This document shows, piece after piece, positions 3,148-64,000 of a stretch of 64,000 nucleotides of DNA. The stretch's first letter is position 1, and the number at the start of each line of letters is the position of its first letter. A program made the position numbers and the translations under genes. The stretch lies in NCBI GenBank assembly GCA_008632985.1, contig QPGO01000074.1:248001-312000 (forward strand), read 5' to 3'. The stretch is from Psammoneis japonica. Taxonomy: Eukaryota. The notes beneath the pieces were generated by a model that had not been told where the DNA came from, ran no database searches, and saw only the letters and a list, made by a program, of their open reading frames with translations.

Positions 3148-3419
3148 CATTTTAGATTTCTTTTCAAATTTGCGACACACAGAAATAAATGATGGATGAC
3201 ACTGCAGGGAAGTGAAAAAGCAAACTGTTGTCATGTGAATGATGCGTTTGATTTTGATGGATCGGTGATGGAGGTGATGATGGGTGATGGGTTCGGCAAA
3301 TTTTGAAATCTTGTCGATCGGCGGGACAGGTTCTTCAACGTGCTGTAGGGTTCAGTACAACTCTCCACGTTACGGAACAGTGGTACTGACAGGCAGTGTG
3401 AATATGACAAAATCCTGTC

Positions 3420-5050: not shown

Positions 5051-5271
5051 TGAAGTTCTCAAAAAAGTCTGAGAGCAAAAACGGCAAGGGGTATGACGTG
5101 GCATCGGAGGGAAAAAATGCCGGCAACTACTGCTGGGGCACACGGCACACCTTCAAGGTTGCAGCTGTTCGGTGTCAATTCAAATTGTTGAACACCACCA
5201 CAATGGCGCCCAGCCCCAGCGCCCATCTGCCGGAAGTTTACTGAATCTCTTTGAACCACAATTTGATCATC

Positions 5272-32392: not shown

Positions 32393-32423
<31 letters not shown>

Positions 32424-32425
32424 GG

Positions 32426-32615
32426 NNNNNNNNNNNNNNNNNNNNNNNNNNNNNNNNNNNNNNNNNNNNNNNNNNNNNNNNNNNNNNNNNNNNNNNNNNN
32501 NNNNNNNNNNNNNNNNNNNNNNNNNNNNNNNNNNNNNNNNNNNNNNNNNNNNNNNNNNNNNNNNNNNNNNNNNNNNNNNNNNNNNNNNNNNNNNNNNNNN
32601 NNNNNNNNNNNNNNN
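32426..32615. other. Assembly gap (N run) preceded by (GT)n and poly-G
   Basis: 190 N bases. Confidence 0.99.
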
Positions 32616-32650
32616 TTGTGCATTGAACCGAGGCAACACAAGCACAAGCC

Positions 32651-39300: not shown

Positions 39301-39364
39301 GAAGGAGGATGGCAAAACTGATGAGCCAGAGGAGTGCAATGACAATGAGGAGGAGGACAGGTGA
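36306..39364 (+). mobile_element. Degenerate DDE transposase, Sola-like
   Basis: DHTGGCAKQH and APGHGKGEVGG match the DGC..QY / GHGKG..DG signature; broken by stops and frameshifts; ~174-bp tandem duplication at 36390-36730. Confidence 0.6.
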
Positions 39365-42109: not shown

Positions 42110-42440
42110 CCCAGTGCAATTGTGCTGATTGTGCACTTCTGTTTGCATGACAAATGTGCTCCAGAGAGGGGGGCAATGTCAGTCACCACAGATGTGATGC
42201 AGATGAACAGAGGCAGCCTCTGAGGCAGTTCCAGATGCTTGACAGCACCAAGCAGCAAGCGTCACAGTGAACAATCCAAAACAGCATGCAGCAGCCGGCA
42301 CACTGATCAATGCACTTCTGTTTGTGTGACAAATGCACTCCAGAGCAGGGGCCAACATCAGTTGCACAAAAGTGACATGGACAAAGAGAGGCAGCCTCTG
42401 AGGCAGCTCCAGATGCTTGACAGCACCAAACAGCAAGCAC
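42110..42440. repeat. Imperfect tandem duplication, period ~178 bp
   Basis: gaggcagcctctgaggcag.tccagatgcttgacagcaccaa.cagcaagc at ~42210 and ~42388. Confidence 0.8.
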
Positions 42441-43473
42441 CACAGCAAGCAAACCAAAACAAGTCTGAGATGGTGGCAACTGCCATTTGGAAACGGTTGA
42501 GGCAAATGCACAAGTTTGGTGGAAATTTGGAGAAAAGGAGTGCAAAGCAACCAAAAAATGAGGTGTGCAAAGAAACTTGAAAAAAGCACATGTGTGGTGT
42601 CTCAAGTGAACCACAACATGCAAAATTGACAGCGACCAATTCCAAATGACAAGATGCAAGGAAATGGTGTTGTTCACAATGACAAAGACTGCACAGAGCC
42701 ACAGCTGCATTGTGACAACAATGGCATGATTTTCAAAGGCAAGGAACAGACAGTTCCATGCAACCACAAGTGCAAACAGGGGGTTGCAGAGCAGTGACAG
42801 TGGTGTGCTGTGTCATGGCTGACTCTGTGCACAGGGCAGTTTTGCACGTGGACCACATGTGTGCATGGAAGTCAGCATTGATCAACGCATTGCCAGAAAA
42901 ACATTGAATGCCAACTGACACCATTCTTCTTGTGATGAGTTAAATGCTTTGGTTGCTGGAGACATGTGCTCCTTGTCACAAATGCAGCATGTCATCAAAA
43001 CACAACACACTCACAAAAGGCTGAAAAGTGTGAGCTCAGCCAGGTGGAGACAAAATTGTCTGGTGCTGAAAGCTGCACAGAAATTTGCACTTGATGGGTT
43101 GTGCATCACCTGGAGCTGGAACAGGCCAAGTGCCAGTACATGAAAGCCATGGTGTTCATAAGATGGTCAAGAACCACGGGCACTGCAGGCAAAGTCATGC
43201 ATTTTGGCTGCAGTGACAAGAGTCTCAAACAACCTCCACAAAGCAAGGTGTGGAGGACAGAGGAAAGAGCTTTGGGTGGCTGTGAAAAGCTGAAGCATGA
43301 CCTCAATTTCCACAAGAGGCAAATGCTGAATTCCAAAAATGACAAGCTGCACATGCTGGAGGAGCTGGGTTGTTGGCATCATGGCCATGCATGTGACGCA
43401 ATGAGCAGAAATGGCAATCTTTGTGCTGAAGTTCCTTGTCAAGGGTCAGTGTGCCATGGCACCAAAAATGGCA

Positions 43474-43474
43474 A

Positions 43475-43541
<67 letters not shown>
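43474..43541 (+). repeat. (GAAA)16 microsatellite
   Basis: Perfect tetranucleotide run. Confidence 0.97.
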
Positions 43542-43735
43542 TTGCTCCTGTCAATCTCAGCAACCCCCCAAATTGCTCTCTTTCCATCCCAGAGACCCAA
43601 AAAGATGAAACAAACACTGCCACAAGCAACCAAACCCCGCTGAAAAATCATGGCATCATGCAAATCATTGCCCCAGAAAATGAACCTGGAAATAAACCTG
43701 GGCTGCCAAAGCTGCAAGTGGAGGACCTCATCCTG

Positions 43736-44063
43736 ATGCGCTCCAGCTCTGCTTGGGTGGGGCCTTGCACTGCACTGCTGAACTGTGACATCAAGAGTTT
43801 TTTGGATTGTGCCGCATGTCGCACATGCAGAAGGCTGCATGTGTGAGAATGAAAATGGGTTGGGTGTGTTCTTTTTAATGTCTGAAGAATGTGCCCAGAC
43901 AAACTGTTAATTGCGCACTTCAAGATTGAAGGAGGAGACATGGTGCGTTCATAAAATTGCCTCTTTTTCTGTTGGCGATCATTTCACAAATTGCTGCGGA
44001 GCTCGCACGTGGAATTCTCCAGGCCCAATGTCACACGGAGTCCCACCCAGGACTGGAACCCAC
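43736..44063 (+). mobile_element. MITE, copy 2 of 3 (divergent interior)
   Basis: Ends ATGCGCTCCAG / CTGGAACCCAC; flanks ATCCTG/CTCCTG; shares gcactgctgaactgtgacatc and gcggagctcgcacgt.gaattct..ggcccaatgtcacacggagtcccacc with 63096-63482. Confidence 0.8.
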
Positions 44064-47000
44064 CTCCTGCCACCCTGCCAGACAGGTGCACAATGCCAGT
44101 CAGCTTCAGCTGCAGAAAAGAACAAAACCCAACACAAGCCACCAAACCATGGAAGTTGGCCCAACAACACAATGCCAGCTGCAACCCACACACAACCCCA
44201 AATCCTCTCAAACTCCCCAGTCAAAACACACCCGGCACCACCAAAACACAGCTCTGCCACCACACCAAATGAACACACCATGCCACCCAACTTGATCCAA
44301 ACCTTCCTTGATCCAAACCTTCCTTCCTGCACTCCAACAAAAAGACAGACATGGATCTCATGCAACAGCAGAAGTGGCAGCACCAAGATTGCTGTGTTCT
44401 CAGCTCAACTCAACACAGATGTCACATTTGTTGAAGACAACAACTCCTGCACAGAGCCAATCTGCTCCACTCAACTGCACTTGCCAGCACACCCAGGACC
44501 CTCCCACCTCATCTCCAGAGCAACAGTGCATTGACCCCAAACTCAGCTTCCTCTTGAATGCAGCCCACACTGACCACTTGGAGTCACAACCAAAAATCCC
44601 ACTTTGCAATGATCCAAGCTAGAAGGGCACTGGGCACATTGTCGCACAACAACATGTCCATGGCATTGCAGACCCAAAACAATGGGGGGACCTCACCAAG
44701 GCTCTTGGGTGGATGCACCATGCCCAACATGCTCAGCAGATGATGGTTCATTGCTGTTTGGTGTGGTTGGCACATGTTTTGAGACTCTGTGGAGTTGCCC
44801 ATTGGGACTTTGTGATGCCTGGATTTGTTTGTTTGACATTTCTGCTCATGTTTGCTGGCAAAAATGCCATCAATTGCTTGTTGTCTGGCATCTCTCTTTT
44901 TCTGTGTGATCTGTCTGGTCTCCTCTCCAGCTGACACTTCACAGATCAGGGGAGGGTGTCAGCTTGCCACACATGGGTTGCAGTCAAGCTGTTTTGGGGA
45001 AGGTTGATGACCAGACCATTCACCAGATGGCAGAGACAATCTCCATCTGACATCCTCTCATTCTCTTTTGCCAGCACACGTGTTGCACTTGCTGCCCTGG
45101 TTTTCAGGGGGTCTTTCACTCCAGTTGCCTCTTTCCTTTTGGTGCCCTGACAACAACAGCAAAAGAGCAATTCAATGCAAGAGCATTGCAAAAAAATCTA
45201 AGAACTTCATCACAAAAAAGGGGATTCCAGCAATGTGGCAGTCAAGCTGTGCCAAATTTCCAAGGCATGTGCAGCTGCAACAAAAAATGCACAATGCAGA
45301 GCAAATGTTTGATGGAGATTGGACCAAAAACAAGGCCCTGGAAATCACAGAGGCACAACAGTTTGGTCCTCCAAACATCTCACCACCAACTCCTGTTGAG
45401 ATGATGGACCATCAACCTTTGATGCCACCATGCTGCTCAATCATTGGATTGCACACTCCATGTTGAGTGTTGGACATGGAGGAGGATGCATGGCAAATGC
45501 TCTTGGAAAAGTTGATTTCCAGAAACCATTTTCATGAAACAAATGACTGTTGCTTGGTGGAGAGGAGGATTTGCAATGACAAGACATGGTGTGGTGGGCA
45601 AGTCAATGGCAACCATCATGGACAAGATGGTTGAGGAGGACTTGATTGCAAGTGTTGGGGCATGTGATGACCCCTGGACACACGGCATTTTTTGTTGTGT
45701 TTCTGGACAAACCTGTTTGCACAAGACTCCTTTTGTGCAGATTAAATGTCTGTGAGACATTGACCGCACATTGCAGAAAATTTGCGACAGATGCATGTGC
45801 TCAATGAATGCATTGTGAGCACCACAAAATTCAATGCACATTCAACAAATGCTCACATGCAGTGTTTCAGCAATGCAATTTCATCATTTTGTTGATTCTC
45901 CTTCTGTTTGTTTTGTCATTGATGCATTTTGTCTCCACAACAAAAGGAGACAGAGACAAAACAGATGGAGACAATGGAGACAAAATCCATGCACTGCCAG
46001 TGAAATCAAGACCAAGAGCACAAAGAGCACATTGGCTTCCCAAACCTTGCAAAACAAGAAGCAGAGAGAAGTGACAAGTGCAAACAGCTTCAACACACAG
46101 CAGTGGTTTCAATCTGCAGCTTGGTGGGTGCCATTGCATGTCTGTCCATCCCATCCTGCCACACTGGCACCTGTTGGTTTTGTCTCCATCTGTCTCCATC
46201 AGAGACAAGATTTTCCCATTGTTGTTTGTCTCACAACATGATTTTGTCTCTGCTGTGCTGTTTGTCTCACAACAAGATGCTTCTGCAGAGACAAGTTGCC
46301 AAGCAAAAACTTGCTTGCCAAATGAAGTGATGCACATGTTGATGGGTGACATTGATGTCAACCTTCACAAACAAACACATTTGTTTGTTTGTCCTCAACA
46401 GTCATTTTGCTGAAAAAATTTCACCCAAATGGGTCATTGCAGACAAACATGCAGGACTGTGGGGATGGCTTTGTTGGAAAGCGAGACAAGTTGTTGCCAT
46501 GTGTCCCAGGTGATGACAAGGAAGATGAGCATGTGTGAGAGAATGACCAAACTTGTCAACAAAAGCAATCTTTTGGCTCTCAGAGTCATTTTGGCCAGTT
46601 GTCACCAACGTGGACCAACAGAAGTTTTCACTCAACACTTTCTTGTCTTGCAACACCTGCAATGCAAAATTTCTGGGCACATTTCCAAATGACATCCTTG
46701 CAATCCGCAGCACACTGCAAAGCAATGGTGCTGCATTGTTTTGCATCATGGGAGGATGCTGAGCCAAATCCCAGTCACCCTTGCAACAGGATCAACTGGT
46801 TGAGGGCTGGCATGTCAACAGGTGAATTTGTTTTTGTGGGCTGCAGCACCACAGCACTTGATGACAAAGTCAATGATGTCAATCACATCTGGACCAGAGC
46901 AGTTGACACTGCAGTGAATGGGATGACAAGAGTCAATCTTTGCCCCACTTTGACCAATGCCATCCAAAGCAGACTGCAAAGTTTTTGATTGACAGTGTCT

Positions 47001-49239
47001 CATGAGCGACACACACCTGAAGCTCGCAAATCAGACTTGAGCTTTTGGGTGGCAAAATGCAAGATCATGGATTTGTCTTTTGCACTCCACACCAACCAAG
47101 TCAGGCAGGAGGAGGAGCATTTGGTGCAAGGGATCAAAAGAGCCCAGATTTTTAGATGCAGGCTCAAGGGACCAGAGCATTCTGAAATTGCTTGTGTCAG
47201 AGGTGAGCTTTTCAAATCCTTTCCATGTGAGCTTGTGTCATGTTCAACATTGGTTGTTGATCCGCTCACCTCACATTTGGTGTTTGATGGTGTCTTGGAT
47301 GTTGCCAAGGCACTTGTCTGAATCCTCAACTGTGGGCAAGAGTGTGCAGGACAAACCTGTCAAGACAGGCAGTGCACTTGAATTTCCAACATGGTGCTTG
47401 AGTTGATCTGACATGCCACTGATGCAACAAACCCCAGGGATGTGGTGTGAAGAAATTCGATGTGAGAAGAAGGAGCTGCATGGCCTTGATGTCAAAAAGT
47501 TGTGCAGTGACTGCCAGTTTGATGTTTTGCATTGTGAAACAGAGGACCAGCTGGCAACCCTGTCTGAACTGTTGGGTGAGTCCACTGTGGGTGGGTTGCC
47601 AGCAAAACACCAACTCAAAGTCAGCGCCACCACCCACCTTGAGCTGAGTGACTGTGCCAACCACATTGCTGGCTCTGAAGAAGAGGAAAATGAGTTAAAA
47701 AAGAATGACCCACCATGGTGGCATTGAAATTCTCCACAATTGCCAGGGGACAGTGGCGGAGGCATGATGCTCCCTGTTCATCCTTGTCCAGTTGGCTGGG
47801 ACAGCTGATTTCCCCAACATGTGATTGCAAAAGCTTGTGCACCACCAGAATCCATTTGGAGCCAACAACAGTGATGTGGGCCACAATTTGGAACAGCAGA
47901 ATCAGGGTGAAACCCTCTTGCAACCCGGCATCAAGTTTGATCATGTGGGCAACACATGTGCTGTTGAGTTGGTGAAAATGCTGATGTGGGAGCAGCATGT
48001 GCATGGCTTTCCAACAGTGTCGGCACACCTTCGCAGTCATTTGACATGCCAAGGGCATGTGCGGCAGTGAAAACTGAGTGCAACTTGAACCAGTGGTGGT
48101 GGCGTGCATTCCAGCAGCACCAGCAGCATCAGCAGTGTGACACATGACTCAAGCTGACAGTGGCACACATTCCGTCTGCACTGGCAGCATCAGTGGCACG
48201 ACATTTTTTAACTGGCAGTGGCAACATCAGCAGTGTGATGCACACTGCTGATGTCACATCAGAGACCCATGGAAGGGGCCATGAGTCACACGTCATCAAA
48301 CCCCACCATCCCATGGTGGGTGTGTGCACGCAAATGTTCGTTGACCCCCCTCCAGATTGAAAATTGCCCTCACTTGTTGGGAGTGCAACACAGTTGTTTA
48401 TTTTCACCATCCCAATTGGTGCACTTTGCAATTGTTGCTCCCAGATGCACATGATTTAATGTGCATTTGTTGACTTGAATGACAACATGCCCAGTGACAT
48501 GTTCACATGTTTCCCTGACACATGAACAAATGCATTTTGCTCTAACTGGAAAGTGTCCATGTTCACACTGCACATGGCATTTTTGCTGAAAGCACTCCAT
48601 TTCCATCTTCACATCAATTTTCAATTGTTTTGCAAAATTTCCACCTTTTTCTGTTTTCCCTCCAAAAGCCATCCTGACCATTCAATCACAATGTTCCGTT
48701 CGCACCACTCATCCAACCAACTGCGTGCAGCGCATTTGTCCGTTCTGCTTGTGATCTGTGGACCCAATCCCCTGTGTTTTCAGTGAATCACTGCAGAACC
48801 GTGAAAACAATGTGACAGGCAGTCCACAGGATTTACGTGCACTGGTTTTGCCACAATTGCCCATGGCGGTTTGGCTCTTCTGCTTGGTTGGTCATGCCCA
48901 TCGTCGAAGTCACGCCCGAGCAAAAGCAGCGTGTCTGTTCTTGCCCTGAATCATTTGATGATCATTCTCCCGTGCGTGCAATGAATTGAAGAGGTGGGAT
49001 GAAGCCAATCAAAAACAGTGGCTGTCTTTGTACAATCTGACGGTGGGCATGGATAAAATGCAGAGAGAGACATGGAGGGTGATTGGGGCCATGAACAAAG
49101 AAGCCAAGGCCAGAGAAAAGGTCTTGCAGCTGGCACTAGAAACCAAGCACTGTTGGCCACCAGGGATCATTTCATGGACCAAAACGAATGAAGAGATGAT
49201 GCAAGTCAACACTTTGCACCAATTGCAAGAAAGCAATTC

Positions 49240-52200
49240 TTTTAAAACATGTGTTTGTCTGTTGGCTCAGCAGTTTCCTCTCGCGTCATCATTTCCTCAG
49301 TCCATTCACAGAAAATCTTAGCCCAGTCCAAGCAGGGTTTCACCACCATCACTGTGTGAATTTTCTGCTGCACACTGTGATCCCACACTTGGGGTGGGAC
49401 TGGGTCTTCATGTTCCTTTGACAGGAAACAGAGAATTCCGCGATGGATCTTTGTGATGGGCATGGACCGCATCGAAGGTTTCCTGGAGGGTTGGAATTCT
49501 TGGCGACAATGAGTGTGCAATCGGGTGTCACCGCAATCTGACTCGGGAACACGGCAAACGGGAAGATTCCAACTTGCAGTCAACCAAATGTGCAATCGCC
49601 TTGTTTGTTTGATCAGAGTCTTTGTAAAAACCGATTGAATGGGCAGGATGCAGTTTGCTGGATTCGTCATTCACGTCAAAATGGACCTCGGCCCAGTCGA
49701 ACCAGGGACCCTCTTTGGCATGGCACTGTGGGCTGGCTCGGAGATGATCACCATTGGAAAGTTTTACTTCTATCCAGATGTCAAATCTTTGCTGATCGGG
49801 CTTGAGTTCTTGAAGGGCTTCAAGCAGCACTCTGCAAGGCCACCCGGACATCTCGTTTGTTGGTGTTTCCTTCCCACATCAATCAATCAACAGGACGTTG
49901 TCGAAATCATCTCAAACAAAAACAAATTGTGGCATGCGTTGGGTCAACTTCGGCTCACCTCCATACCCGCCAATGTCCACAACAGAGGAACCATCACCCT
50001 CAGCAAATGAAACATCCTCTTGAGATTTCTGCTTGCTGGCCTCATCCAAGCACCTTCCATGCAGGATGGCCTCGCAAATTTGTGTGCACGTTTGTTGCAG
50101 GAAAGCAGCCTCCCCCCTTTTCTGGGCATTGGTGATGAAAACGCTTGTGGTTCTGGGCTTCATCGTTTCCCTTGTCAAAGTTGATGGAGTTGTTGCCTCG
50201 ACACAGGATGGTGTCCATGTGCCCCAGAACTTGAGTTGTGCCAAAGCTGATCATGGAATGGTCCTTCTGCATGCATTCTGGAAGACGGTGCGAACAATGA
50301 CAAAATGCATGACAGCAAAGACAATGTCGCACCCGTGTGTCCATTGCCCTTTGTCAATGGTTTTTTCCAATGGTGCTTCATGACACAGTTCTCCATTGGG
50401 AATGAGAACTGGTGTGGATTTTGGATGTCTGGAGAATCACCTTCTTCTGTTTCATCCGAAGCAGAAAGATCAACCTTCTTCTTCGACACGGTCTTGCACA
50501 GCCCAGAGTCGACACATCTCTTGACATTGGAGACTCTTCCCTGGCTTCTTTGTAAAAGACAACCACAGCAATCTCTGATGATGGGACATTCAATTGAGTT
50601 GAAAACCTCAAGAGATGGGCAACAAGAGTCTGCTTGGTTTTTGATCCCTTTCAAAATCTTGCAGGCCTCCACAAACAAATGGTCAAGCTGCAACTCATCA
50701 AATTCATCCTCGAGCATGAAATCAAAACCGTGCAGCTTGAGGTGCTTTATGACGAACTGGATTGATTCCGGTTTGCAGTCGAAGGGACTTTGCAGTCATG
50801 GTCTGTGGCAAAGAAGGTGTCCTTCCTGCAGGGAAAAGTGGTGGGTGGGAGCGGCATGTTGGCCTTTTCTTCCTTGACCACGGCTGCCTTCAGTGCCACC
50901 TCCTCAGCGGCCTTTTTTGCAACTTCCAAGTCACGGGCAGAATTCTGCTTGGCTTTGGAATGCTTGTTGGGACGTGCCCAAGCACCTGTGTGTGTGCCTG
51001 TTCTTTTTCAGCATCCGCCAACCATGCTCTGGTTCCCTCCAGACGATCCAACCTTTTGCATGATGTCAGTTTCATTGGAAGACTCGGCGTTGCTTTTGTT
51101 TTCCCATTCTGCCTTTGGTTTGTGCAAAGACGCAAGTTTTGAGGTGGAGGGAAATGTTTGGCACTTCATCTTTTGATGATCATGCACCTTCTCCATTGTC
51201 CCCCGTGTCTTCAAAAATTGCATCGCTGTGCCAAGGTAGAAAAGCAAACCCATCTTTTCCGAGTGGGTCTGGAGAGTCACCCTGGTCAAGCCAGAACTCA
51301 ATCAACCTCTTGGGTGTTGCACCAAGGCAGTGGACCGGCAGGATCCAATGACAGCTTTCAGCTCCTTCTCAAAGTTTTCTTTCTTGGTTTTGGTCAATCC
51401 AAAGTGCGACACTTGCGCGACATTCTCAGCACCACCAGCTTCCCAGAAATGAAGGTGATCATCGGCCATGGCTGCAAAGACACCCCAAGGATTGCTCCCA
51501 AAATTGACACCTTCAAAGGCGTCACGCAGTGGGTGCATTGCATGCAGACAAGAAAGAAGGGCCAATGCAAGCTTCTGCTGTCTCTTCAGATAGACTTCCA
51601 AAGGGCTGTCCTTTGAGATGGCCACAGTGGAAGCACTGCACCCAAGTGCAATCTCATTGAGACAGGACGCGATCTTCACATTGATGGGAAGACATGAAAG
51701 GCCAAACTCATTGGCTGGATGGGAATTGTTTGTCTCGTTGTTGGTGCTGCACATGCACAGCCGATGCACACAACCAGCACCACCCCCATTTGCAGCTTTC
51801 CATCCACAGACAAAGTCTTGTGACTTCTGATCCCCGGTTGTTGGACCTTGTGCAAGGAGCACTCACATGAGCCGACGCACGCCGCCCCCCCGGTTTACCA
51901 TCATTCGAGGCGGGTCAGCCTGAAGGGCCTTCAAATCTTCCAGGAGAAAAGACAAGATGTCATGGTGGGCCTGCATGTTGGATGACGAGAAAGGATCACC
52001 CACTTGTCATTGTGAATTGTCTTTGTTCACGTCCCCATTGTCATCCAACGTGCCAGTGACCCCACCCTTGTCCAGACCAGGTGTGAACCCCAGGTGACAC
52101 CAAGCAACATCGCACTCCTGCACATGTCTTTTTGTGATGAGGATGGAAAAAAGCCAGGGTTCGAGTGGGTGCCATTGGTGCACATCGGTCCCTGTCTGGT

Positions 52201-53060
52201 CCAAATGCAAAACAATGGGCAAGAGCAAGTCTTTCTCACAGTCAAAGTTGGCAGGGAGGTTGGTGCAGGTGTCGGAGTGCCATTTGTTGGCCATCATCTT
52301 GCCAAAATCGTGCTCCTCCAAAGGAAAAAACTTCTGAAAGCATGACTGAATCGACTTGTTCACATTGAGATTGTGCTCATTGTCGAAGATTGAGTGAGAA
52401 AGCAAGTCTCGCAACATGTCCACCATGCAAAAGCAAATGACTTCTCATCCACCAACAATGTGTGTGTCTGGCTTGGGCATGTGCACCTTCTTGCTGACGT
52501 TCTTCACAAGTGTGTCTCATCTGAGACATTGGGAACAGTCAAATTTCCTCTTCTTGTGGCATTGTCAAAGCAATGCAAGCAACTGCCCGCAAAATTGACG
52601 AGTTGCACCAGAGTTGTCACACAGAGCAATCAGCTCCAACGAAGCTTCCTCCTCAACTGAAAAGGTTGGTGCCCCATCAGCAGGTGGATCATGATCTGGA
52701 CACAAATCATTTCTGGTGGGAGGGACAGTGGGTGGATCTGGAGGTGACATGGATTCATCAAAGAAATCCTCTTCAAGCGGAGGTGAAATGAGAGCCGCAC
52801 TGCCAGGGAACATTTTGCAGGGAGAGTGATCATAATCGTCATCATCCTTGTCCTCATCTTTGTCATCATCCTCGTCCTCCACATCCTCAGGTGAGGCCAG
52901 TGGCTCCAGGTCTTCTTCTGGTGGAAAACTGGGGGGGTCTTCCTCTCCGTTGAAGTCCAAACTTGGATTTGATGAGTCTTTCTTGGAGGCGGAAGAGGCT
53001 TGAGAAGCATGTTGCCAATCGTGGACCAAAACAAAAAAGGCCAGTGACAGCTTGTTCAAT
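49240..53060 (-). mobile_element. Degenerate Plavaka-like transposase
   Basis: LLLPIVLHLDQTGTD..PLEPWLFS, VFAAMADDHLHFWEAG and C-terminal LRASPQCH..GPWFDWAEV resemble Plavaka-type motifs once His/Cys are read as Tyr. Confidence 0.6.
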
Positions 53061-55519
53061 TCAGTGGTGGTGGAGGCAGTGGGATGGGCTGCGTTTTGCC
53101 TGCATCAGCAGCAACGACTGTGAGAAGACATGCTGCACAAAGAGTCTGGTGGGAGGAGGCAGGCTGTGGCAGTGGAATGGAGCGGGTTGACACTGAGTCT
53201 CAACCATTCATTGGTGAGCACCTGTCTGATTGATTTTTAAATCAATTTGTTGAGTGGAGACTTGGTCTGTTTTTGAATGACACTCACTCGGCAGGTGGGG
53301 AGTGGCCGTTGTGGAGTGGGCCACAAAGACACAATGCTCAAGATGGCATGGAAGCACACAGCCATGTGAGATGCACAAATTTGAATTGTGTGGAGTCCAT
53401 TTTTAAATTCCAATGCCTGCATCCGGCAAACAGAAAAAAGTTCATGGAATGCTCTTTTCAGGCAAGCAAAAGAAACATGAGCACGAAAAAGGGCCAACGG
53501 TCATGCAAGTGTGATCCGCAAGACTCATCACCTTCATCATCTTCCAGAGACACCAAAAAACAACACACAAGAACAGCAACAAAAACAATGATGGTCATCG
53601 TTGAGCGATCGATCAACTCCACCAAGTGGATGGCAGACAACGCAAAGGTCATGCAGGACACAGCCAAGGTGAGAGACCACGTCAAAGAAACCTTGTTCCT
53701 GAGTGTCACATTCTTGTTCAACAACAAGGAAATGGAGGAAATGGGGGTGCTGCACAGAGACTTTGTACAGAATTGTGGACCCACACTGAGATGGGCGGGA
53801 TGCTCAAGGAGCTGCCCGACGCAGAGCAAAAAACACACCTCAAATGCCTGTGGCTGACGATGCAGCAAAAAAAGATGTGTCGGGAGTGGCTGTCAATTAA
53901 GAGGTCAAACGCATGCCAGGTGCAGCAGGACAAGTTCCACAGTGAGAACCAGTGAGTGCTGCCATGATTGTGGCCATTCAAATTGCTGACAATGACATTG
54001 CTTGCATTCCCTCCTGCCACAAACAAAGCTCTTTGTGCACACTGTGACAACAACAACTGCATGTTGCCATCCGTGGAATGATTCCAAGAGCGCTTGGGAA
54101 ACCCAGCTTTGCAGATTGTGTTTCACGACTGCATGCTGCATCCAATCATTAGAGAAACATGCTGGAAAGAGTGCATTTCCAAGGACAAAAGGATGGGCAC
54201 AGTGTGTGCCAAAGCGTTTGTGCACATGCTGCTCAAGAACAACTGTGGTGTGTGGCATGCCAACTGCAAGAGCAGAAACAAGGACAGGACATTGATGTTG
54301 GATTGTGATGTGGAGATCGCCGAGGATGGAAGCCCGGCAGATGCGACTGGGAAGGACTTTTGCAAGACCGTCATGCCACACATTGCAGCTGCCAAGGAGA
54401 AGGACGAACAAGACAAGAGCCTGTTTGTGCTGCTCCAGAAAGATCCACAAGAGCCGTCAGAGGAAGGCACTTCTGTTCAAGAGTTGAAACAGAAGTGCAG
54501 CAAGACAAGGGGAGAGTCCACTGCAAAGCAAAATGCAATGGTCAAGAAGATCAGAGCAGAGACAAAGACTGCAGAACAAGTCCAGGCACTGAACGAGGTG
54601 ATGCAAGTTCTTGTCAGCATCAAGAACAATGACGATGTGTCCAGAAAGAAGAGAAAGGTTGTCAGGAAACTCAAGCATTTCATGGCGGCAAAGCCCAAGG
54701 ATGGACCAAGGAGGCACAAGACACCAAGGAAGAGCAAGGGGTGGTCCCTGCAGAAATGGTGACGGAAACCAAGCAAGACAGTGCAAGTGGACACCTGGGA
54801 AAGGTGGGAAGAGCTCTGCAGAGATGTCGCAACCAAGCAAGATAAACAGGCTGTGGAAGAAGGACAAGATGGATTGGATGATGAAGACAGCCAACATGTC
54901 AACTGCACCGACATCTGTGAAATCGAGTTGGTGGAAGTTTGGTCAAATTTAACCAAGTGGCAATTCATGCGTGCACACCAATTGATGATCAATTTCAGTG
55001 GCACAATGCAACAATCAAATGGGATCATGGAAACAATTGTCTGATTGACGTGCAGTTGAGATTGAAAACAAATCAAGATGCTGCATTCAGTCATTGCTGA
55101 GTTGGCAACAATCAGACATGTAATTTTCAATGAAGTGACTTGTTTGCAGCACCAACTTGTTGAGTTGCAGCTTGCAGTTTTGGAAATGATGACTCTGTGT
55201 TGCCATCGATGGACATTTGTTGGTTGGGATGGACATTTGTTTGTTTTCAATCACGCCCATTTGTGGTCAATTGGCGTGATTTGTGTTGAACAACCCAGAT
55301 TTGTCATAAATGTGTTTGTGTGCAGACACTCACACACATCATCTACAATGTGAGTGATTTGTTCCACCGCAAGATTGTTCATGAAAACAGGCCTCTGATG
55401 CAGTGGCAGCATCCACTCCATCGGCACTGGCAGTGTCAGCAGCACAACATGTTTCAACCAGTGCTGCTTCTTGTTCTCATTGTGAAAATCTTCATTGTCA
55501 CCTTCCATTGCAACATTGT

Positions 55520-58500
55520 CCACCAGCTTCACTGGCTTGTCTCATCACATCCCAACAGCCAAATCATTTGTCGTTGAAGCCATTTTGCCATGATGCGCAG
55601 CTTGGAGGCATCACCTTTCCCCAATCCAACAGCACTGCCATGATTCATCCTTTTGAAGAAGAAAGCCTTCTGCACAGCATTCAAATGCTCCCAATCTTGC
55701 TGACTGCAAATGCACAGGTTTCTCCACTTGAGCACAGAGTCTTTGATGTGGCCACTGCCAAGCATGTGAGTGCAATTTGTCAGTCCCTCAACTCCACAGA
55801 GCTCAACCTGCATTTGGAAAAATTCATCCACTTCACACTGAAACTCTGCAATGCAATCATTTGACAGGTCCTCTTTGGATCTCATCATTTCCATGGATCT
55901 CTCAAGGTGCAACACACACGTTGTCCAATGGTCTTGACTGTCCTCTTCAACAACTGGCAGGTGTGCCAACACTCGTGTGTGTGGATGGTCCATGCGCAGC
56001 TGCCCAACCTCCTTCTTGTTTTCCTTCAAAGAAAATCTGAAGGAATCTCCATTGTGGTGGAGCGTCGTTGTGCAAAAGGAGAGCCTCATTGATGGTTGAC
56101 TCAACACTTTCAATGCAGTGCTTGATTTGTCCCGTTGTGCTCTGCACCTCTTCAAAAAGTGCTCCATCTTCACAGTTTGCAATCCCCTCCTCAAATGACA
56201 TTGTGGGGCATTTTTCCTGAGTTTCCATGTGCAACATGCAAGGGACAGCCAACATTGAAGTGCAGAGTGCCTTTTCATTTGGCTCCACATGTGCCAAATC
56301 TTCCTTGAAAGCGACAAGCATTTTCTTGCTGCCAATCCTCTTCTTTGGTTGTTCTCTTTTGCCTTCCATGGAGCCACAAATGCTCACTTGTCTGAGGCCC
56401 AACTCTCTGTCCAACAGCTCGCTAAAGTTCATTGCTTCATCTGTGGCCTTGGGCTGGAAATTGATCAACAAAGGGTCACAATCACCTGTGTCTGTTCCTG
56501 TTTCAGACATTCTTGCCTTTGTTTCTCCATCTTTGGGCAATGCATTGCCTGCAATTGTTCGCAGCTGAGCTGCCTCCTTGTCCAGTTTCTTGACAAATGT
56601 TTTGTCACTGACCAACGCCGCTGGTCATCACCTCCGTGCAGCTCTTTGCAACTTGGGCATTTCTTGGCTTTTGGCACAGCGCACCTGCTGGACTTGCGTG
56701 GGCAGCATGGGCAAAAGCATGGTGCCACCTTGCAAGCTCTGCCTTTGTGGAGCCCTTTTGATGGGCAATGTGGTCACCAGTGTGTGGCACTTTCAGAGTT
56801 TCTGCAATGCACAGCTGCCAGTGAGAGCCAATGCATCACGGCGACGTGTTGCAGCCTTTAAATGTCACAAAGGGCATGACAAAAACAACCTTTTGTCTGC
56901 ATGCATGCTGCACCATGAATTCACAGCGGAGTGGTTCATCGCAACCATTGGGCAGGAGGCCAGGGGTTCGAAACCCTGAGTGGGAGTTGTCTGCAGCAAC
57001 GTTGATCACTGTCGAACGCGTAAAACTCTGTGCAGTTCTGCACGTTCCTTCGTGCGTGCCCACACTGTTCCGCCAAAACCGTGCAGTGTCAGCACACGTC
57101 AGTAAAGAGCCGCATGGACGCGCGACACATGGGGAGGAGTGCAACACACAGCTGCCAACAAGAGCCAATGCATCACGGCGACATGTTGCAGCCTCAAATG
57201 TCACAAAGGGCGTGACAAAAATAACCTTTTGTCTGCATGCATGCTGCACTTCTGTGTCTTTATCCACAGATTCCTCCTCACAGTCATTCATGAATTTGTG
57301 GAAATTTTCAAACAGCTTGAAAGTCTCTTGGCTCTCCTGACCTGTCATCACTTGAAATGGGAAACAGCGGTGGCTGGATTGTGCTGTTGCTGCACCACTT
57401 GTGACTGCCAAGCTGGCAATTTTGTCTGTCAATTTGACACCTGCTCTGATGACATTGTCGCGCTTGTTGAGTGTTGCGCCGTGAATGGCAGCACTCACTT
57501 CCACACTTCTGCTGGATGCTTTGTCCCACAGGCTGTGTGCTTTCAACAATGTGGCAGTGTTGGGGCATTCTCAAATGTGAAGCCTTCCCCATGTTCTTCA
57601 CCAAACATTGACGTGGGTGCTTTCCCATCTTGCGCTGCAGCCTCGACATTCTCTGCTGCACTGAGCAGAGCTTTGTTCAATGGTGTCATCCCACAAAAAC
57701 ACCTGGCACCACCACTTTTCACCAGCCAAAGAACCTCAACTCCTGAGTGTGACAGCTTTTGATCCAACAAGATCCGCAGCTCTTAGAAGTTCCCTGGGTG
57801 TGAGTGCATTCTCCCTGAGCCATTTCCAAGACTGCTCAATGATGGGGATTTTGAGAGTGCCGCCACAGAAGTCATCTGAGAATGAAGTGTTCGCCACTGT
57901 CATGTTGGTCTTCTTACACCAACCTTGTTGCATTGGCGGTTTGGCCACTCTTCTAAAAAGGTCTGTGGCTCTTCCTTTGCATCTGCTTCGTTGATTGATG
58001 CTTCCTCATCTTCTTCAGATTTGTCTTCTTCTTTTGCCTCAAAAGACTTCTTGTCATTGTTGTTGTCTTGTTGGCTTGCCTGCATCACCATCTCTCCTTC
58101 CAAAAACCCCCTTCTCTTTTTTGGGTGACCCTTGTTTGCACAGTTCATTGTTGCAACAGCTCCATGGGTTGTCACATCAGATTTGTGGTGGTGCAATCGG
58201 AGCTTCATCTCCAGCTTCTGTGTGGGGCCAATCAACAATGTGTTTCACACCGACACCTGATGCGGCTGTGCTTGGCCTTGCCGCGCCAAGGAGGTGCTTC
58301 TCCTTGTCCCACACAGGCCACAATTGTGGCACAGAAAATGACCTTGATCTCAAAATTTGGTGTGCCTGTTCACACCACAGTTGCAGCAAGCAATGGCAGT
58401 GCTGCCCCCTTTCGAAGTGTGTGGCCAGCAGATGGCAGCAAACACAAGCCACGTGTGGCAACTCTGGCTCAGCTTTGCTGATCTGTTCTTGTCCTTGGGG

Positions 58501-58850
58501 TGGCAGGCTGGAGCTGGGGTGAGACTGAGACAGAGTGTCTGGCGCTTTTTCTGGCAAGCCTCTTGTTGGCACGCAGTGCAGCTGGAGCAGTTGCACTCAT
58601 CTTGTGTCTGTTCTTGGTTGGCACCATTGTCAGCCATGGAAGCATCAGCATGTTCTGCACCTTGTCTGTTCTCATCAGAAACTGGGTTAAAATTTTCTGC
58701 AGGTTCCCACTCAGGATGTGCTGAGATGTCAACACCCCGAACCCCAGTCAGAACACCATCTTGGCCAATTTCATCTTTGCAAAAAATGGACTTGACTCTC
58801 AACTGATCACAATCAGGTGCATTTTTTAACAACACATTTGCAGCAATGCA
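55520..58850 (-). mobile_element. Degenerate RAG1/Transib/Chapaev-like transposase
   Basis: FPFQVMTGQESQET, PCFCPCC, VPCMLHME; GLTNCTHMLGSGHIK...CSQQDWEHLN parallels RAG1 ITNYFHKTLAH...WASEGNESGN. Confidence 0.65.
56803..57248 (+). mobile_element. 446-bp TRIM-like LTR element with an internal tRNA-like segment
   Basis: Direct repeats 56803-56912 and 57140-57248, both TG...CA; PPT GGGGAGGAG at 57131-57139; flanks TTTC/CTTC; interrupts the transposase coding sequence. Confidence 0.8.
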
Positions 58851-58884
58851 CATGATCAGTTAAGAGTCAAGTCCATTTTTGCAA
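58777..58884. repeat. Inverted repeat, ~32-bp arms with 43-bp spacer
   Basis: ttgcaaaaaatggacttgactctcaactgatca ... tgatcagttaagagtcaagtccatttttgcaa. Confidence 0.9.
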
Positions 58885-59094
58885 CAATTGTGAGAAACTG
58901 GCAGTTTCAGTGCAAAAATGTGCAGATTCTGCAGACGACCAAGTGTGGCATGCATGTCAAGCCACACTCTGTGTCAGCACTGCATCAGCAACTTGAGCCT
59001 TTTTGTGTGCACTTCCTTGTGTCAGAATGAAATGGCAATGTTTGTGCTCCACACAAGTCCTGCAGAATCATGCACAACAGAAATCCACAGAGCG

Positions 59095-59641
59095 CAAGCT
59101 TTTGCACAGTGGAGCCAAAAGAGCTGCAAAGTTGGCTGGCGAATCTGGCGACTGGAGCTGTGCTTCAAGGGAAATTTGAAACTTTCTTTGCAGGATGTGT
59201 GGCAGTTGCTGGTGATGAACGTGCCTGATTTTTGGCGCAAGCTGTCTGAGATTGAGGAATCATGCACCACTGGCGAGGATGACAACATGAGTTCTTGTGT
59301 TGCAGCCGAGAGTGTGGCCTTCAACGCCCATCTCGCCGGCATTTGCCCTCCATGAATGACAGAAAGTCAGGGGAATTCTTTTCCTCCTCAGCCAATTGTT
59401 GACGCGGCCCACGTGTTGTGTGATGGTGTGACAAGTGAACCTCCTGCATTGGTCTGCACTGCAAAAGACTCTGGCGGAGGTCAGTTGCCAAAACAGAAAT
59501 CCCTGGTGGTTGCTGTGGCTGTTTTGACATCTGTCCACATCACAATTGGGAGTTTCTCCATGAAAAGTTCACACCATTGCCATCCTTGGGGTCATCACAA
59601 AAAATGTTGGAACTGAACGAGAAAATCCGCAATGTGGACGA
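59095..59641 (+). pseudogene. Partial, hypermutated duplicate of the glucosidase II beta gene (matches 25167-25693)
   Basis: Colinear nucleotide alignment to the intact gene; in-frame stop (CGA>TGA) and small indels. Confidence 0.95.
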
Positions 59642-60172
59642 CATGCTGCAGCATGCCTCGCCACTGGACAACACGGCGAGACCGTGCGTGAGCCTCTTGT
59701 ACATGGCAACGCAGCATTGTCAACACGCACCTGGGAAGCACGACCACAGGAGGGCGTGGCTCTAGGTCTTGGGCAATTCCAGAAGGATGCTAAGAGAGCA
59801 TCCGTGTGAAGCACACTGGCCCGTCGTCTGGCCCACGATGGCAGCGTGATTCCACACGATGACATCACTCGTGCACAGCGCGTGATGGCGTGATTCGCAC
59901 GATCCACAATGCAAACGCACGATCGATTTGATGCGATCCAAATGCGAACGAACAGGGATTTGGCAAGATTCCCTGTTCACACGATCCCATTTTCTCTACT
60001 CTAAACCAGCTCAAAATTTTCACAACGACAAAGTCGCAACACATCTTCTTTTTCAGCGCCTGGCACATGCACAGGGCACAGCAATGTCACTCCCACATGT
60101 TGTGCGAGGTGACGAAATCTACAGAAACGAAACTACGAAATGTTGGTGGGACCGACAAATCTTAAAACGACC

Positions 60173-61189
60173 ATGAAGAAGCGGGTTGAGCCGCCGATTC
60201 CGTTCGCGTGGCCGGAGAAGAAAGAGCTGCAGCAGGGCGAGCACCAGACGTTCAAGCTGCGCAACAACCCTGCTGATCCGGATGGTCCAACACACGAGAT
60301 GGGCATTCCGTGCCTTTCTGCGGCTACATGCGAGACACTCCCAATCTTTCTGCGCAACGTGGATTGCGTGCACGAAGGACAAAACATCACGACCGGGCCA
60401 GCGAAATTTGCCCTTGTGCGTGACCCACTGCAGGGCGATGCTCTGACGTCATTTGACAATGCCGCTGACAAGCAGGCATCCCAAACCAATGCCACGTGCG
60501 CAGCATGTGTCGCGAAGCTAAAGGAAAGCATCTTCCCACATGGGGCGGTGCCATTGCAGAAGCATCATCTGAGGCGCTTCATGCACAAGCCCGCAGAGGT
60601 TTCTGCTCGTGACTGCGTCGTGAGGGCTGTTGAAATTAACGGCTGTGTCTCTCAGTTTCCACCCGTGACGGAGGATGGAGAAGCACCGGCACCATCACCT
60701 GATGACGAACCATGCGACATGTTCGAGTGCGGTGTGCCGAACGCATGGCAGAAGTTCATGATGCTGCAGAATTTTGACCCGTTGGCGCATGCTGTCGCCG
60801 AATTTGTGCAGTTCTGCGAGCGCATCGAGCAGGTCGAGCTTGCTGAAGGTAACCAGGACCAACATGCTAAGGTTCCACGCAAGCGGGGACGTAGAACGGA
60901 CAATTCTGAGTCGTTGATCATGACCCAACGGAACACCCAGAAGTCATGCATGCCACACGGGACCAACTGTGGACATCATACAGAGGATTGCCGTCAGCTC
61001 AAGCACCACATGAAACGTGTCAAGACTGGACATTCCAGTAACGGAGGCAGCAAACCCAACACAAAACCTCGGAATGAGGAAGATGTTGACACTCTCATCG
61101 GATCAAAGGTCGAGGAGTTCTTTGCCAACGCTCAGAAAAAGCGCAAGGCACGCGAGGAGGAGCTCAATCACTTCGCGACCTCAACTTAA
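60173..61189 (+). pseudogene. gag: gag of the gypsy element (open frame, no Tyr codons)
   Basis: LQGDALTSF, IFP...LQKHHLRR, GVPNAWQ, zinc-knuckle-like CMPHGTNCGHHTEDC. Confidence 0.8.
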
Positions 61190-61360
61190 GCGATTCCGAA
61201 GATTCGGACACTTGAGAAGGGGGCCGACACGACACAGGTAGTTTTAACACAGATGAATGCACAAATGAACAACTGAATTACCATCGTACACGTGTTGTAG
61301 GCCAATCCCGCAAACGAGTTAAAAAGACTCATCTTGCTCCAATCTTGTTTACAGCTATGA

Positions 61361-64000
61361 ATGCTAAACATGGCAAGGGCAAGACTCAAACCATTAAGGC
61401 ACTGCTATATAGTGGCGCCAGCAGTGCTCTACTCGACAGTCGATACTGTAAACGTCTGCGAAGCCATTCAACGGCTGAAACAAACTGGACTACGGACGGC
61501 AGCAGGCTCGTTCAGTACGTCTAACGACTATACCGTTAAATTTTGGTTACCAGAATTATACGAAACTGCAGAACTTAAACATACCGTCCACGTACACAAC
61601 GGAAAGTTGGGCAAGTACGATATGATTATTGGACGTGACATTCTGGAGACACAAGGCATTGATATTGTCTTCTCTAAACAGATGATAGAGTGGCCATTAG
61701 TCAATGGAGAAGTACCAATGAGGCACGTAGATGCTACGGTAGAAACCTCCTTCTATCTTCAAGATCCAGAAGCCTTATCTTCGGAAACCGACCGGATTTC
61801 GCGTATTTTAGACGCTAAGTACGCGCCGGCCTGCCTCAAGGACATAACGCGAGGGGCAATAGGAATTTCTATAGTTCAACAAAACGACCTTTTGGCATTA
61901 TTGAAACGCCATGAGTCCTTATTTGATGGGACATTAGGAGAATGGAAGGGAGAACCCTACCATATCCAACTCAAGGAGGGTGTAGAACCATACCACGCTC
62001 GTCCGTATAAAGTACCTCGTGCGTACGAAGCTACGCTACGTAAAGAAGTAGAACGCCTAGTACGTATTGGTGTTCTCAAACGCGTTAACCGATCCCAATG
62101 GGCAGCTCCATCATTTATCATACCGAAGAAAGATTTAACGGTACGTTTTATTAATGATTTGAGAGAGCTGAATAAACGGATCAAGCGATTGCCTTATGCG
62201 ATTCCTCATATCCAAGACATGCTACTTGAGCTCGAAGGCTTTATGTGGGCTACATCACTGCATTTAAATGTCGGCTGTTATCACATCCGATTGGATGCTG
62301 ACAGCAAGAAGCTCTGCACGCTCATCTTCCCGTGGGGCAAGTATGAGATGCAGGCATTGCCCATGGGATCATGCAATTCGCCAGACATTTTCCAAGAACG
62401 CATGTCAGGCTCATTTGAAGATCTGTCGTTCGCTCGAACGCACTTAGATGACCTTCTCGTCGTGACGAAAGGCACCTGTGAAGATCACCTCAACAAACTT
62501 GAAGAAGTTTCATTGAGGGTCCAGAAAGCAGGACTAAAAGTTAACGCAACTAAATCTCACTTCTGTCAAACCCAATTAGAGTGCTTGGGTCATCTGGCCA
62601 ACAGAGACGGAATGCGACCAATGCCCAATGAAGTCGACGCCATTGAGCAAATCGCGACCCCAGCCAATGAACGTGACCTGCGCTCATTTGTTGGCATGGT
62701 GAACTGCTGCCGCGACACGTGGATTAGACTTTCTGAAGTCTTGGCTTCGCTGACACGACTCGCAAGCGAGACTGTCAAGTGGAAGTGGACGTCCATTGAA
62801 GACGAGGCGTTCCAAACCGTCAAACGGGTGACATCGGACAATGTTTCATTGTCACATCCTGATTTTAACAAACCCTTTGAGATGCATGCCGATGCCTCTA
62901 AATGTCAATTGGGAGCAGTTGCATCCCAAGACAACAAACCTGTCGCCTTTTACAGCAGAAAGCTTGACAGTGCGCAATTAAATTGTGCAACAACGGAGAG
63001 AGAATTGCTCGCCATTGTGGAGACGTTGAAAGAATTTCGAACGATTCTCCTTGGTCATCGTGTGGTCACATGTGCTGATCATAAAAAATCTTACGACGCG
63101 TTCCAGGTCTAGGTGGGACCTCGCACTGCTGAACTGTGACATCGACAGTTTTTTGAATCTCGTCGTATGTCGCGCACGTAGAATTCTACGTGATTTTTTG
63201 ACATTTTGTGTCATTTTATGGTGCACTTGTTGAGCGATCCGTCCAAAAACTTTTGACATTTTTTGTCACAGCGCGATTCTATGATGTCTTAAGAATCGCG
63301 CAGGGCAGGTGCATTTGCAAAAACGTCGAGTGGCAAGAGGCACAATTGTGCCACAAACTTGGCCGTTTATTTGATGTTGAAGATGGTTGCATCCATTGAT
63401 TAAATTCTCGCACTGCGGAGCTCGCACGTAGAATTCTGCGGGCCCAATGTCACACGGAGTCCCACCTGGGGCTGGAACGCGTCTTACGTGCAAAGCACTC
63501 AATGCCGAGCGCGCCATGCGCTGGCGGTTGACATGCGAAGAATGCGGTCCCGAATTACGCTGTGTCAAGGGTGCCCACAACCTGGTCGCTGACGCTCTTG
63601 GTCGCCTTCGACCAGCACCCAGCTTGCCTTCCGAGGCCAATCTGGATGCAAAAGACACTCCATCGAGTCGTCCTTTGCATGAAGCTTTTAATGCAGACGC
63701 GCAAGATGAGACATCTCTGCCTGTTAGCTTCAAGCGCATTCAAAAAGCACAACAAAAGGACAAGCGCCTGCTCTCACGAGCTGAGGACTCGTCCGACTGC
63801 TCCATTTGCGCGCATCGTGGGGGAAGGTCATCACCACAGTTAATCTGTCATAAGGACAAAATCGCAGTGCCACAGTCATTGCAGGCTCCGCTAACTGAAT
63901 GGCGCCACGAGACACTGTGTCATCCAGGTGAGACACGTGCGGAAACATCCATTGCCCAGCACTTCCATTGGCCCAGTGTGAGGTCTACGGTGCATTCTAC
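61361..64000 (+). pseudogene. pol: pol of the gypsy element (protease, RT, RNase H, start of integrase)
   Basis: ALLYSGASS (protease D>Y, in another frame), YDMIIGRD, WAAPSFIIPKK, HLDDLL (YLDD), DASKCQLGA, TERELLAIV, DHK | MITE | RWRL, NLVADALGRL, HETLCHPG. Confidence 0.92.
63096..63482 (+). mobile_element. MITE, copy 3 of 3 (least mutated), inserted in RNase H
   Basis: Perfect terminal ACGCGTTCCAG/CTGGAACGCGT extending to an imperfect ~24-bp TIR; perfect 6-bp TSD CTTACG (63090-63095, 63483-63488). Confidence 0.92.

Follow-up and report, generated by a model that had tools for sequence, protein, structure and literature searches.

The locus described here raises the question of how a retrotransposon can be stripped of most of its TpA dinucleotides while its CpG dinucleotides stay close to the expected number, and whether the two losses are separate. 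The window, that is the whole stretch of DNA analysed, comprises 64,000 nucleotides of the Psammoneis japonica assembly GCA_008632985.1 (contig QPGO01000074.1, positions 248,001 to 312,000, forward strand); all coordinates are positions within it, and the polarised pairs and the self-comparison described below are confined to it. At 60173..61189 on the + strand lies an open reading frame (ORF) of 1017 nt and 338 aa, with its stop codon TAA at 61187, which we identify from its sequence neighbourhood as the gag of a Ty3/gypsy-type long terminal repeat (LTR) retrotransposon. The initial annotation proposed that in this gag TpA is lost faster than, and separably from, CpG through an active enzymatic process. 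We consider it probable that the repeats of this window undergo an in-place, DNA-level hypermutation of TpA to CpA or TpG, distinct from a slower decay of CpG, by an agent whose nature we infer.

Direction of change in gag and pol

We found 9 TA in the gag ORF, one of them in the stop TAA, compared to 50.1 expected from base composition. The binomial probability of 9 or fewer is 5e-13 under that composition, 9e-10 if the window's host genes supply the TA frequency and 3e-25 if the neighbouring patch of the same element, described below, supplies it. CG is present 73 times (76.7 expected), and CA (100, with 72.4 expected) and TG (81, with 53.1 expected) each show an excess of 28. Among its 338 residues the translation contains 16 His, 13 Cys and no Tyr, while the seven homologous gags carry 8-11 Tyr each (2.0-2.5%), giving a probability of 3e-4 for none in 338. 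The zero Tyr and the 9 TA of the initial annotation are therefore correct, and the words it quoted (GEHQTFKL, PTHE, QKHHLRR, RDCVVR and a CpG-rich DNA word) are all found in the sequence. Its description of CpG as abundant holds for the count, but CpG is mostly rather than wholly intact, as some Arg codons carry CpG-type changes. The frame it called open is open from 60173, with an alternative upstream ATG at 60140 that extends it to 349 aa; openness is however a weak sign of function or youth and a by-product of the mutation spectrum, because changing TA to CA or TG destroys TAA and TAG and cannot turn a sense codon into a stop.

The direction of change was read from alignments with homologs. 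In the gag alignment (A1), columns with Tyr in at least three of the seven homologs read His (CAC or CAT, four) or Cys (TGC or TGT, four) in the window copy in 8 out of 8 cases. The downstream pol ORF (61361..63112, + strand, 583 aa) encodes reverse transcriptase (RT) and RNase H and was aligned with 43 of the 150 listed representatives, chosen for higher identity and a mostly single matched stretch and trimmed to the match. At 18 columns half or more of these homologs have Tyr; the window copy keeps it in all three up to 62006, and the 15 from 62246 on read Tyr in 3, Cys in 6, His in 4, Trp in 1 and Met in 1. The Tyr positions thus turn out as the initial annotation expected, with His or Cys in all the gag columns and in 10 of the 15 pol columns outside the patch that is spared, and the relatives do carry Tyr where the window copy has His or Cys. 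Furthermore, Leu to Pro and Ile to Met replacements at conserved gag positions fit CTA to CCA and ATA to ATG, and the RT catalytic YxDD motif (62441..62452, + strand) reads HLDD, with the codon CAC in a column that is Tyr in 89% of 38 homologs.

A metagenome search with the patch-encoded protein returned other families only (39-53% identical), which were used for composition and gene order and not to polarise sites. These related elements have TA observed/expected (o/e) ratios of 0.84-1.02 in 7 of 7 loci, similar to the patch. Because the Tyr columns have become His or Cys and the related elements have normal TA o/e, the TA-poor state is derived, through T>C or A>G changes within TpA. Both strands are affected: the CA and TG excesses in gag are equal, and His and Cys occur four times each in gag and in a ratio of 4 to 6 in pol. 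The His and Cys products alternate along gag and pol, and we accordingly make no claim of processive single-strand tracts.

One part of the element has retained its TpA. The spared patch (61239..62285, + strand, 1.05 kb), which covers a protease remnant and the N-terminal half of the RT, shows native TA density, with 7.83 TA and 5.54 CG per 100 bp and a GC content of 0.44. The corresponding TA and CG densities are 1.09 and 7.18 in the left flank (59642-61200; GC 0.535 in the LTR-like part and 0.55 in gag), 1.62 and 5.61 in the right flank (62300-63101; GC 0.483), and 1.72 and 6.87 at 63477-64000 (GC 0.547, on 63480-64000), the segment that follows a miniature inverted-repeat transposable element (MITE) inserted in pol. 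Relative to the patch, the gypsy flanks thus have 78-86% less TA and no reduction in CG per 100 bp; their GC content is 4-11 points higher, a rise of approximately the size expected from the TpA that have disappeared. The patch keeps the conserved Tyr at 61616, 61820 and 62006 and agrees with the homologs at 59 of 66 conserved columns, compared to 89 of 114 in the flank.

The patch lies within the continuous pol frame and is therefore not an insertion. Its borders are graded: on the right, mutated and kept Tyr codons interleave at 62246-62345, and on the left the transition spans 61239-61300, where a same-sample contig has TA at about 61250-61270 and the window has CA. Contigs from a marine sediment metagenome show 1 difference in 148 positions and 4 in 151 within the patch, compared to 7-22 per 144-226 in the flanks; the few differences within 61239-62285 fit a patch that is close to the unmutated family sequence. 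It is either a stretch that the process had yet to reach or one restored from an unmutated copy.

The reverse polarity, in which the flanks are native and a change of CpA to TpA resembling fungal repeat-induced point mutation (RIP) enriched TA within 61239-62285, would account for a TA o/e in the patch (about 1.0) that exceeds the 0.4-1.0 of the host genes, and for position 61530, at which 31 of 31 same-sample contigs read G and the window has an A in TpA. We hold it to be extremely improbable: the TA o/e of the related elements, the conserved Tyr that the patch retains and the flanks have exchanged for other residues, the damage to the catalytic YxDD in a flank and the better agreement of the patch with the homologs at conserved columns all speak against it. 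Position 61530 belongs to a set of three, with 62261 and 63825, at which all covering contigs (31, 27 and 14, respectively) differ from the window, and which represent private changes of the window copy.

TpA loss and CpG decay across the window

The window as a whole has a TA o/e of 0.25, a CG o/e of 0.55 and a CA/TG o/e of about 1.55. Divided into 500-bp intervals (n = 128), it has 43 that are normal for both dinucleotides, 69 that are low for both and 16 that are low for TpA and normal for CpG, two of the latter (21501 and 24001) being borderline host-gene intervals. The reverse combination, CpG-low with normal TpA, was found in none. Host ORFs bearing Pfam domains sit in normal intervals and the TpA-low intervals total 85 of 128. 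The largest depleted segment is an old repeat zone (26501..59600, no strand assigned) where CpA and TpG have taken the place of TpA and CpG alike; most of its intervals have a TA o/e of 0-0.15, a CG o/e of 0.03-0.7 and a CA/TG o/e of 1.5-2.2, and those at 32001-35000 are less depleted (TA o/e up to 0.24, CG up to 0.96). Three depleted islands (3300-5200, 11900-14600 and 16400-18700) lie with sharp borders between normal host genes.

The moderate TA deficit of the window's own host genes (o/e 0.4-1.0) is what selection or a codon or dinucleotide preference, such as UpA avoidance in RNA, might produce with no special mutation process. We give this explanation next to no credence for the repeats, in which the loss is near total, extends to non-coding DNA and to both strands, replaces conserved residues including a catalytic one, and spares 1 kb of the same ORF.

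Two pairs of related sequences within the window polarise the changes directly. The first is a hypermutated duplicate of a glucosidase II beta fragment (59095..59641, + strand, 547 nt), which lies within the repeat zone and adjoins the element on its right. Its unmutated parent segment, 33 kb away at 25167..25693 (+ strand) in the intact host gene (ORF 23823-26135, 770 codons, Pfam PRKCSH_1, PRKCSH-like and PRKCSH), served as the polarising reference and is 82% identical. The parent keeps its 17 TpA and the duplicate has lost 17 out of 17, through 14 A>G and 4 T>C changes, one site being changed at both letters. Its CpG show 25 transitions on 36 sites (15 C>T and 10 G>A). Background transitions affect 10 of 119 other A (8%), 7 of 108 other T (6%), 2 of 88 other C (2%) and 3 of 98 other G (3%). 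The second pair is formed by the MITE within the element (10 TA, 23 CG) and its copy in the old zone (2 TA, 8 CG): 7 of the 10 TA have become CA or TG and 13 of the 23 CG have become TG or CA in the old-zone copy, with no TA or CG unique to that older copy and no reverse change.

Because a host-gene fragment and a MITE copy show the same loss, the process acts in place on DNA, in one direction, on sequences that have no RNA stage. It is aimed at certain segments, namely DNA that is repeated or silenced, irrespective of sequence origin, since repeats, the MITE and the host-gene duplicate are mutated while the adjacent host genes are untouched. These pairs also bear on editing before integration, in which the retrotransposon RNA (by an ADAR-like A-to-I activity) or cDNA would be altered and the changes fixed by reverse transcription and integration. 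The element does have an RNA stage, and U-A is the favoured ADAR context according to the discussion in a preprint on Bigelowiella natans (Mettrop et al., bioRxiv 10.64898/2026.01.13.699255). Editing of this kind, however, predicts A>G in the sense strand only, while His (T>C) and Cys (A>G) are balanced here and the CA excess equals that of TG, and neither the MITE, a DNA transposon, nor the host-gene fragment should lose TpA in the same way. Strand balance and non-retroelement targets are our grounds for excluding pre-integration editing of the APOBEC or ADAR kind, which we regard as very unlikely.

The segments of the window form a graded series, from the patch (neither dinucleotide lost) through the gypsy flanks, the ORF at 33074-34819 and the duplicated host fragment to the deep zone, where both are near zero. 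In a separate tally of conserved residues in the gypsy flanks, Tyr has become His or Cys in 10 of 14 cases and Arg shows a CpG-type change in 3 of 20. The second hypermutated ORF (33074..34819, + strand, 582 aa, P-loop-like by eye from a GxGKT-like word) represents an intermediate stage: its 9 conserved Tyr are now 2 Tyr, 5 Cys and 2 His, and its 17 conserved Arg are now 11 Arg, 4 Cys and 2 Gln. Its homologs (P0207-P0215) come from JGI and ENA assemblies, one labelled Hydra vulgaris, and their family is unnamed. The converse pattern is seen in a related element from a metagenome locus (L002, 2916 nt), with a CG o/e of 0.42 and a TA o/e of 0.84, from which it follows that CpG decay alone does not bring TpA loss.

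Collectively, these results support, at the sequence level, a loss of TpA that runs ahead of CpG decay. The initial annotation had called it faster and separable, and this is what the 16 intervals against none in reverse, the gypsy flanks and the duplicate point to; the CpG loss that might have equalled it does not, either in the Tyr and Arg tally or in the duplicate. The ratio of TpA to CpG loss varies between segments, which argues for two processes aimed at common segments. A single process removing both was considered and set aside, as it must spare the C and the A of CpA and as the loss ratio varies by segment.

In the depleted stretches (26000-59700 and the three islands) 29 frames run for 180 codons or more with no stop; they occur on both strands, often overlap, and arise because TAA and TAG are lost. 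A Pfam scan of 23 of the 29 found no families.

The element, its neighbours and the read contigs

The host-gene-fragment homology ends at 59641, directly before the putative 5' LTR (59642..60050, + strand, ends approximate), which is TA-depleted with intact CpG; the 3' LTR lies beyond the window. The only hint of the 5' LTR is the summed depth of same-sample contigs, which peaks at 59575-60042 and falls after 60043. A primer-binding site was not identified, and the window ends inside the integrase.

The gag ORF has no matching family in a Pfam scan; its seven homologs (P0001-P0007, 370-448 aa, E 3e-65 to 9e-18) come from public metagenome and read assemblies. The pol ORF matches RVT_1 (6e-18), RT_RNaseH_2 (9e-27) and RT_RNaseH (3e-21), and its nearest representative among the matches listed, P0057, has 57% identity. 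The integrase N-terminus (63447..63998, + strand) is truncated by the window end; it has a weak Pfam match to Integrase_H2C2 (6e-5, 23.5 bits, under the curated 25.5), and its frame has tblastn matches to the integrase region of L001 and L003-L006. The domain order RVT_1, RT_RNaseH_2 and then Integrase_H2C2 is that of Ty3/gypsy, albeit with an integrase match below the curated cut-off. The gag assignment made above follows from the RT, RNase H and integrase downstream and from the gag homolog that precedes pol, in the same order, in the related metagenome loci L001 and L002.

This copy is not intact, as its protease is split, a MITE sits in pol and HLDD replaces YxDD. The protease remnant is divided between frames, with a GRDIL-like word and, in another frame, a damaged DSGA-like word, both recognised by eye only. 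The MITE-like insertion (63092..63486, no strand assigned) has terminal inverted repeats with arms of 28 nt (63092-63119 and 63459-63486) that are 86% complementary. It measures about 375 nt, a near-identical short direct repeat lies on its flanks, and the pol frame shifts by one around it. A further MITE copy is located at 30363-30736 and MITE fragments at 43772-44059. Self-comparison of the window found no second copy of the element at the DNA or protein level.

The host ORFs are long and uninterrupted with ordinary eukaryotic domains. Glucosidase II beta has named homologs from the diatoms Seminavis, Cylindrotheca, Mayamaea and Skeletonema at 33-40% identity, and the Atlas cluster nearest to the kinase of the window is mostly Bacillariophyta. 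An Atlas search with the sugar transporter led to plant clusters and was uninformative about the host. The host is by these matches probably a diatom or something closely related to one, and not B. natans.

The element family is multi-copy. In the run whose contigs are near-perfect on the unique flank, the element region has about 100x the summed depth of unique sequence, a summed contig depth that is not a copy number; by the same measure the MITE is the highest of the window in same-sample contigs, at about 190,000-230,000 compared to about 100 for unique DNA. Transitions dominate among the differences between contigs and window (A>G 148, T>C 153, C>T 108, G>A 118), each transversion type accounting for 7-17 places, and 641 of the differing places fall outside the listing. 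One same-sample contig joins 60136 to 60845 and corresponds to a family variant that lacks about 708 nt of gag.

A multi-copy family, in which contigs break inside the element, invites the suspicion of an artefact: either miscalls at modified bases, or a chimeric assembly of a mutated and an unmutated copy that created the patch through joins at its borders. The window is moreover a scaffold, with an assembly gap of 190 N at 32426-32615 and a single N at 13565. We nevertheless judge an artefact highly improbable. Contigs from run X1 reproduce the depleted sequence at 57360-59675 nearly letter for letter (0, 0 and 1 differing letters over 466, 447 and 1463 nt, at a k-mer depth of about 66-70), the losses are complete and coherent at the codon level, and at the patch borders mutated and unmutated TpA interleave with no clean switch.

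Candidate agent and known systems

The TpA that survive are not a random sample of sequence contexts. TAA makes up 55% of the surviving TAN words in the old zones and 22% in host DNA (chi-square 141, p value = 3e-30); between the gypsy flanks and the patch, TAA stands at 43% and 26% and TAT at 8% and 25% (p value = 6e-4). TTAA is about 7-fold over-represented among the survivors relative to host DNA, and ATAT and ATAC/GTAT have nearly vanished. These figures suggest a preference for the 3' neighbour, with TAT and TAC attacked over TAG, and TAG over TAA.

The most probable course of events is the following. After integration, the process hit the element DNA on both strands and turned TpA into TpG or CpA, the change from A:T to G:C taking place only where A follows T. 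The LTR, gag, the C-terminal half of the RT, RNase H and the integrase lost some 80-85% of their TpA in this way, with Tyr codons becoming His or Cys, CTA Leu becoming Pro, ATA Ile becoming Met and the GC content rising. The element was crippled, as in YxDD to HLDD, with no new stop codons. In the repeat zone, the MITE copy and the duplicated host fragment the process has run to completion, leaving adjacent host genes untouched. Diatom transposons are CpG-methylated. The slower decay of CpG to TpG or CpA in the same segments is best read as separate, a deamination of methylated CpG, and the CpG loss would accordingly reflect cytosine methylation.

The near-complete specificity, the sharp regional targeting and rate data from elsewhere make an enzymatic change likely. 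The activity that the initial annotation postulated finds backing in the mutation-accumulation data from B. natans as far as a targeted, active process is concerned; the enzyme is something that we infer. A DNA adenine deaminase of the ADAT2/TadA kind that requires a 5' T would be a suitable candidate. The A34 that tRNA deaminases act on is known to be preceded by U33 in every case, and YAC was the context favoured by early TadA-derived base editors.

The product spectrum would be the same if the change occurred on the T instead of on the opposite-strand A. Dinoflagellates replace thymine preferentially at TpA, and a modified thymine at TpA in silenced DNA (for instance 5-hydroxymethyluracil made by a TET/JBP-type enzyme) could mispair with G and yield T>C on either strand. 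We regard such thymine chemistry as unlikely, since the literature searched here turned up no such modification in diatoms and since the available text of the B. natans preprint proposes adenine deamination with an ADAT2-like candidate, which is itself a proposal.

Several observations weigh against the in-place TpA hypermutation that we favour or limit its reach. CpG in gag is not strictly intact, 3 of 12 conserved Arg having undergone a CpG-type change (2 His, 1 Trp), and the homologs that polarise the sites are just 26-57% identical. The strand skew of the TpA changes in the host-gene duplicate is unexplained by a simple symmetric picture. The contigs' G at 61530 means that a few TA of the patch may be private to the window copy. 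The context skew could come in part from new TA in A/T-rich words or from transposon target-site duplications, and the contigs that confirm the depleted sequence may derive from the same data as the assembly.

Among known processes, CpG decay by deamination of 5-methylcytosine shares the one-way change of CpG to TpG or CpA in the same segments (25 on 36 sites of the duplicate, 13 of 23 in the MITE). It cannot explain the TpA changes, is slower, and is found in no interval of the window that is free of TpA loss. APOBEC3 acting on cDNA and ADAR acting on dsRNA likewise inactivate retroelements by clustered, context-specific transitions, but they do so before integration and on one strand (G>A, or A>G in the sense strand), in contrast to the both-strand changes and the targets with no RNA stage found here. 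The closest classical analogue in logic is RIP of ascomycete fungi, a DNA-level process of dinucleotide-specific transitions that disables repeats in place and leaves a compositional scar. Its direction is the opposite: RIP changes C:G to T:A, mostly CpA to TpA (PMC2621366, abstract), and so enriches TpA, while here TpA is lost and GC raised (0.48-0.55 in the flanks compared to 0.44 in the patch). Furthermore, RIP mutates both duplicates and here only one is mutated, a difference in which selection on the host copy could mask the second.

For TpA hypermutation itself, our literature search for a precedent in diatoms or elsewhere returned the B. natans preprint only (bioRxiv 10.64898/2026.01.13.699255), another candidate, a SPLASH preprint, having no bearing on the subject. 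Of the 231 new mutations that the B. natans text gives for two integrated viral regions, 230 are A>G or T>C; all GC-biased mutations are stated to fall on TpA, and the rate is about 6e-7 per site per generation, approximately 1000x background, in some lines only. RT and DDE transposase domains are enriched among its TpA-depleted genes, and an ADAT2-like protein is the candidate. The terms 'CpG', 'context', 'trinucleotide' and 'flanking', and diatoms, do not occur in that text.

A GC-raising, TpA-specific hypermutation of invading DNA has therefore rested on one preprint and one alga. The present locus shows the long-term end state of the B. natans signature in another lineage and on other targets. 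New in it are the link to CpG decay, targets that are not viral, a skew in the sequence context of surviving TpA and a patch that was spared. As a retrotransposon, a DNA transposon and a host-gene duplicate are all affected, the process reaches beyond viral DNA. It may be widespread in a major group of marine primary producers for which genetic tools exist, making a search for the enzyme tractable. The order of losses, TpA first and CpG later, provides a relative clock. It also carries a warning, as gene finders would call long false ORFs on both strands; in genomes of this kind an uninterrupted frame says little about whether an element is live. More tentatively, and with less than even confidence, we suggest that diatoms and B. 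natans share an old TpA-directed DNA-editing defence of the SAR group (stramenopiles, alveolates and Rhizaria). It would work patch by patch on any silenced or repeated DNA, be it retrotransposons, MITEs or duplicated pieces of host genes, long before methylation-driven CpG decay, and would favour TAT and TAC most, TAG less and TAA least. Its choice of an A preceded by T would in that case be inherited from a tRNA-A34 deaminase.

Taken together, the likeness to B. natans lies in A>G and T>C changes at TpA giving TpG and CpA, in the restriction to particular segments, and in a long-term depletion of TpA with a gain of CpA and TpG. The hosts differ, a chlorarachniophyte (Rhizaria) there and a diatom-like host (Stramenopila) here, and so do the targets: giant virus (nucleocytoplasmic large DNA virus, NCLDV) or virophage DNA in that preprint, an LTR retrotransposon, a MITE, a host-gene duplicate and unidentified repeats in this window. 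Viral targets are perhaps not defining, given the RT and DDE domains among the TpA-depleted genes reported in the same text. The NCLDV region is described there as retaining 3.3% TpA, whereas the depletion here is near saturation, and here CpG decay follows TpA loss in the same segments.

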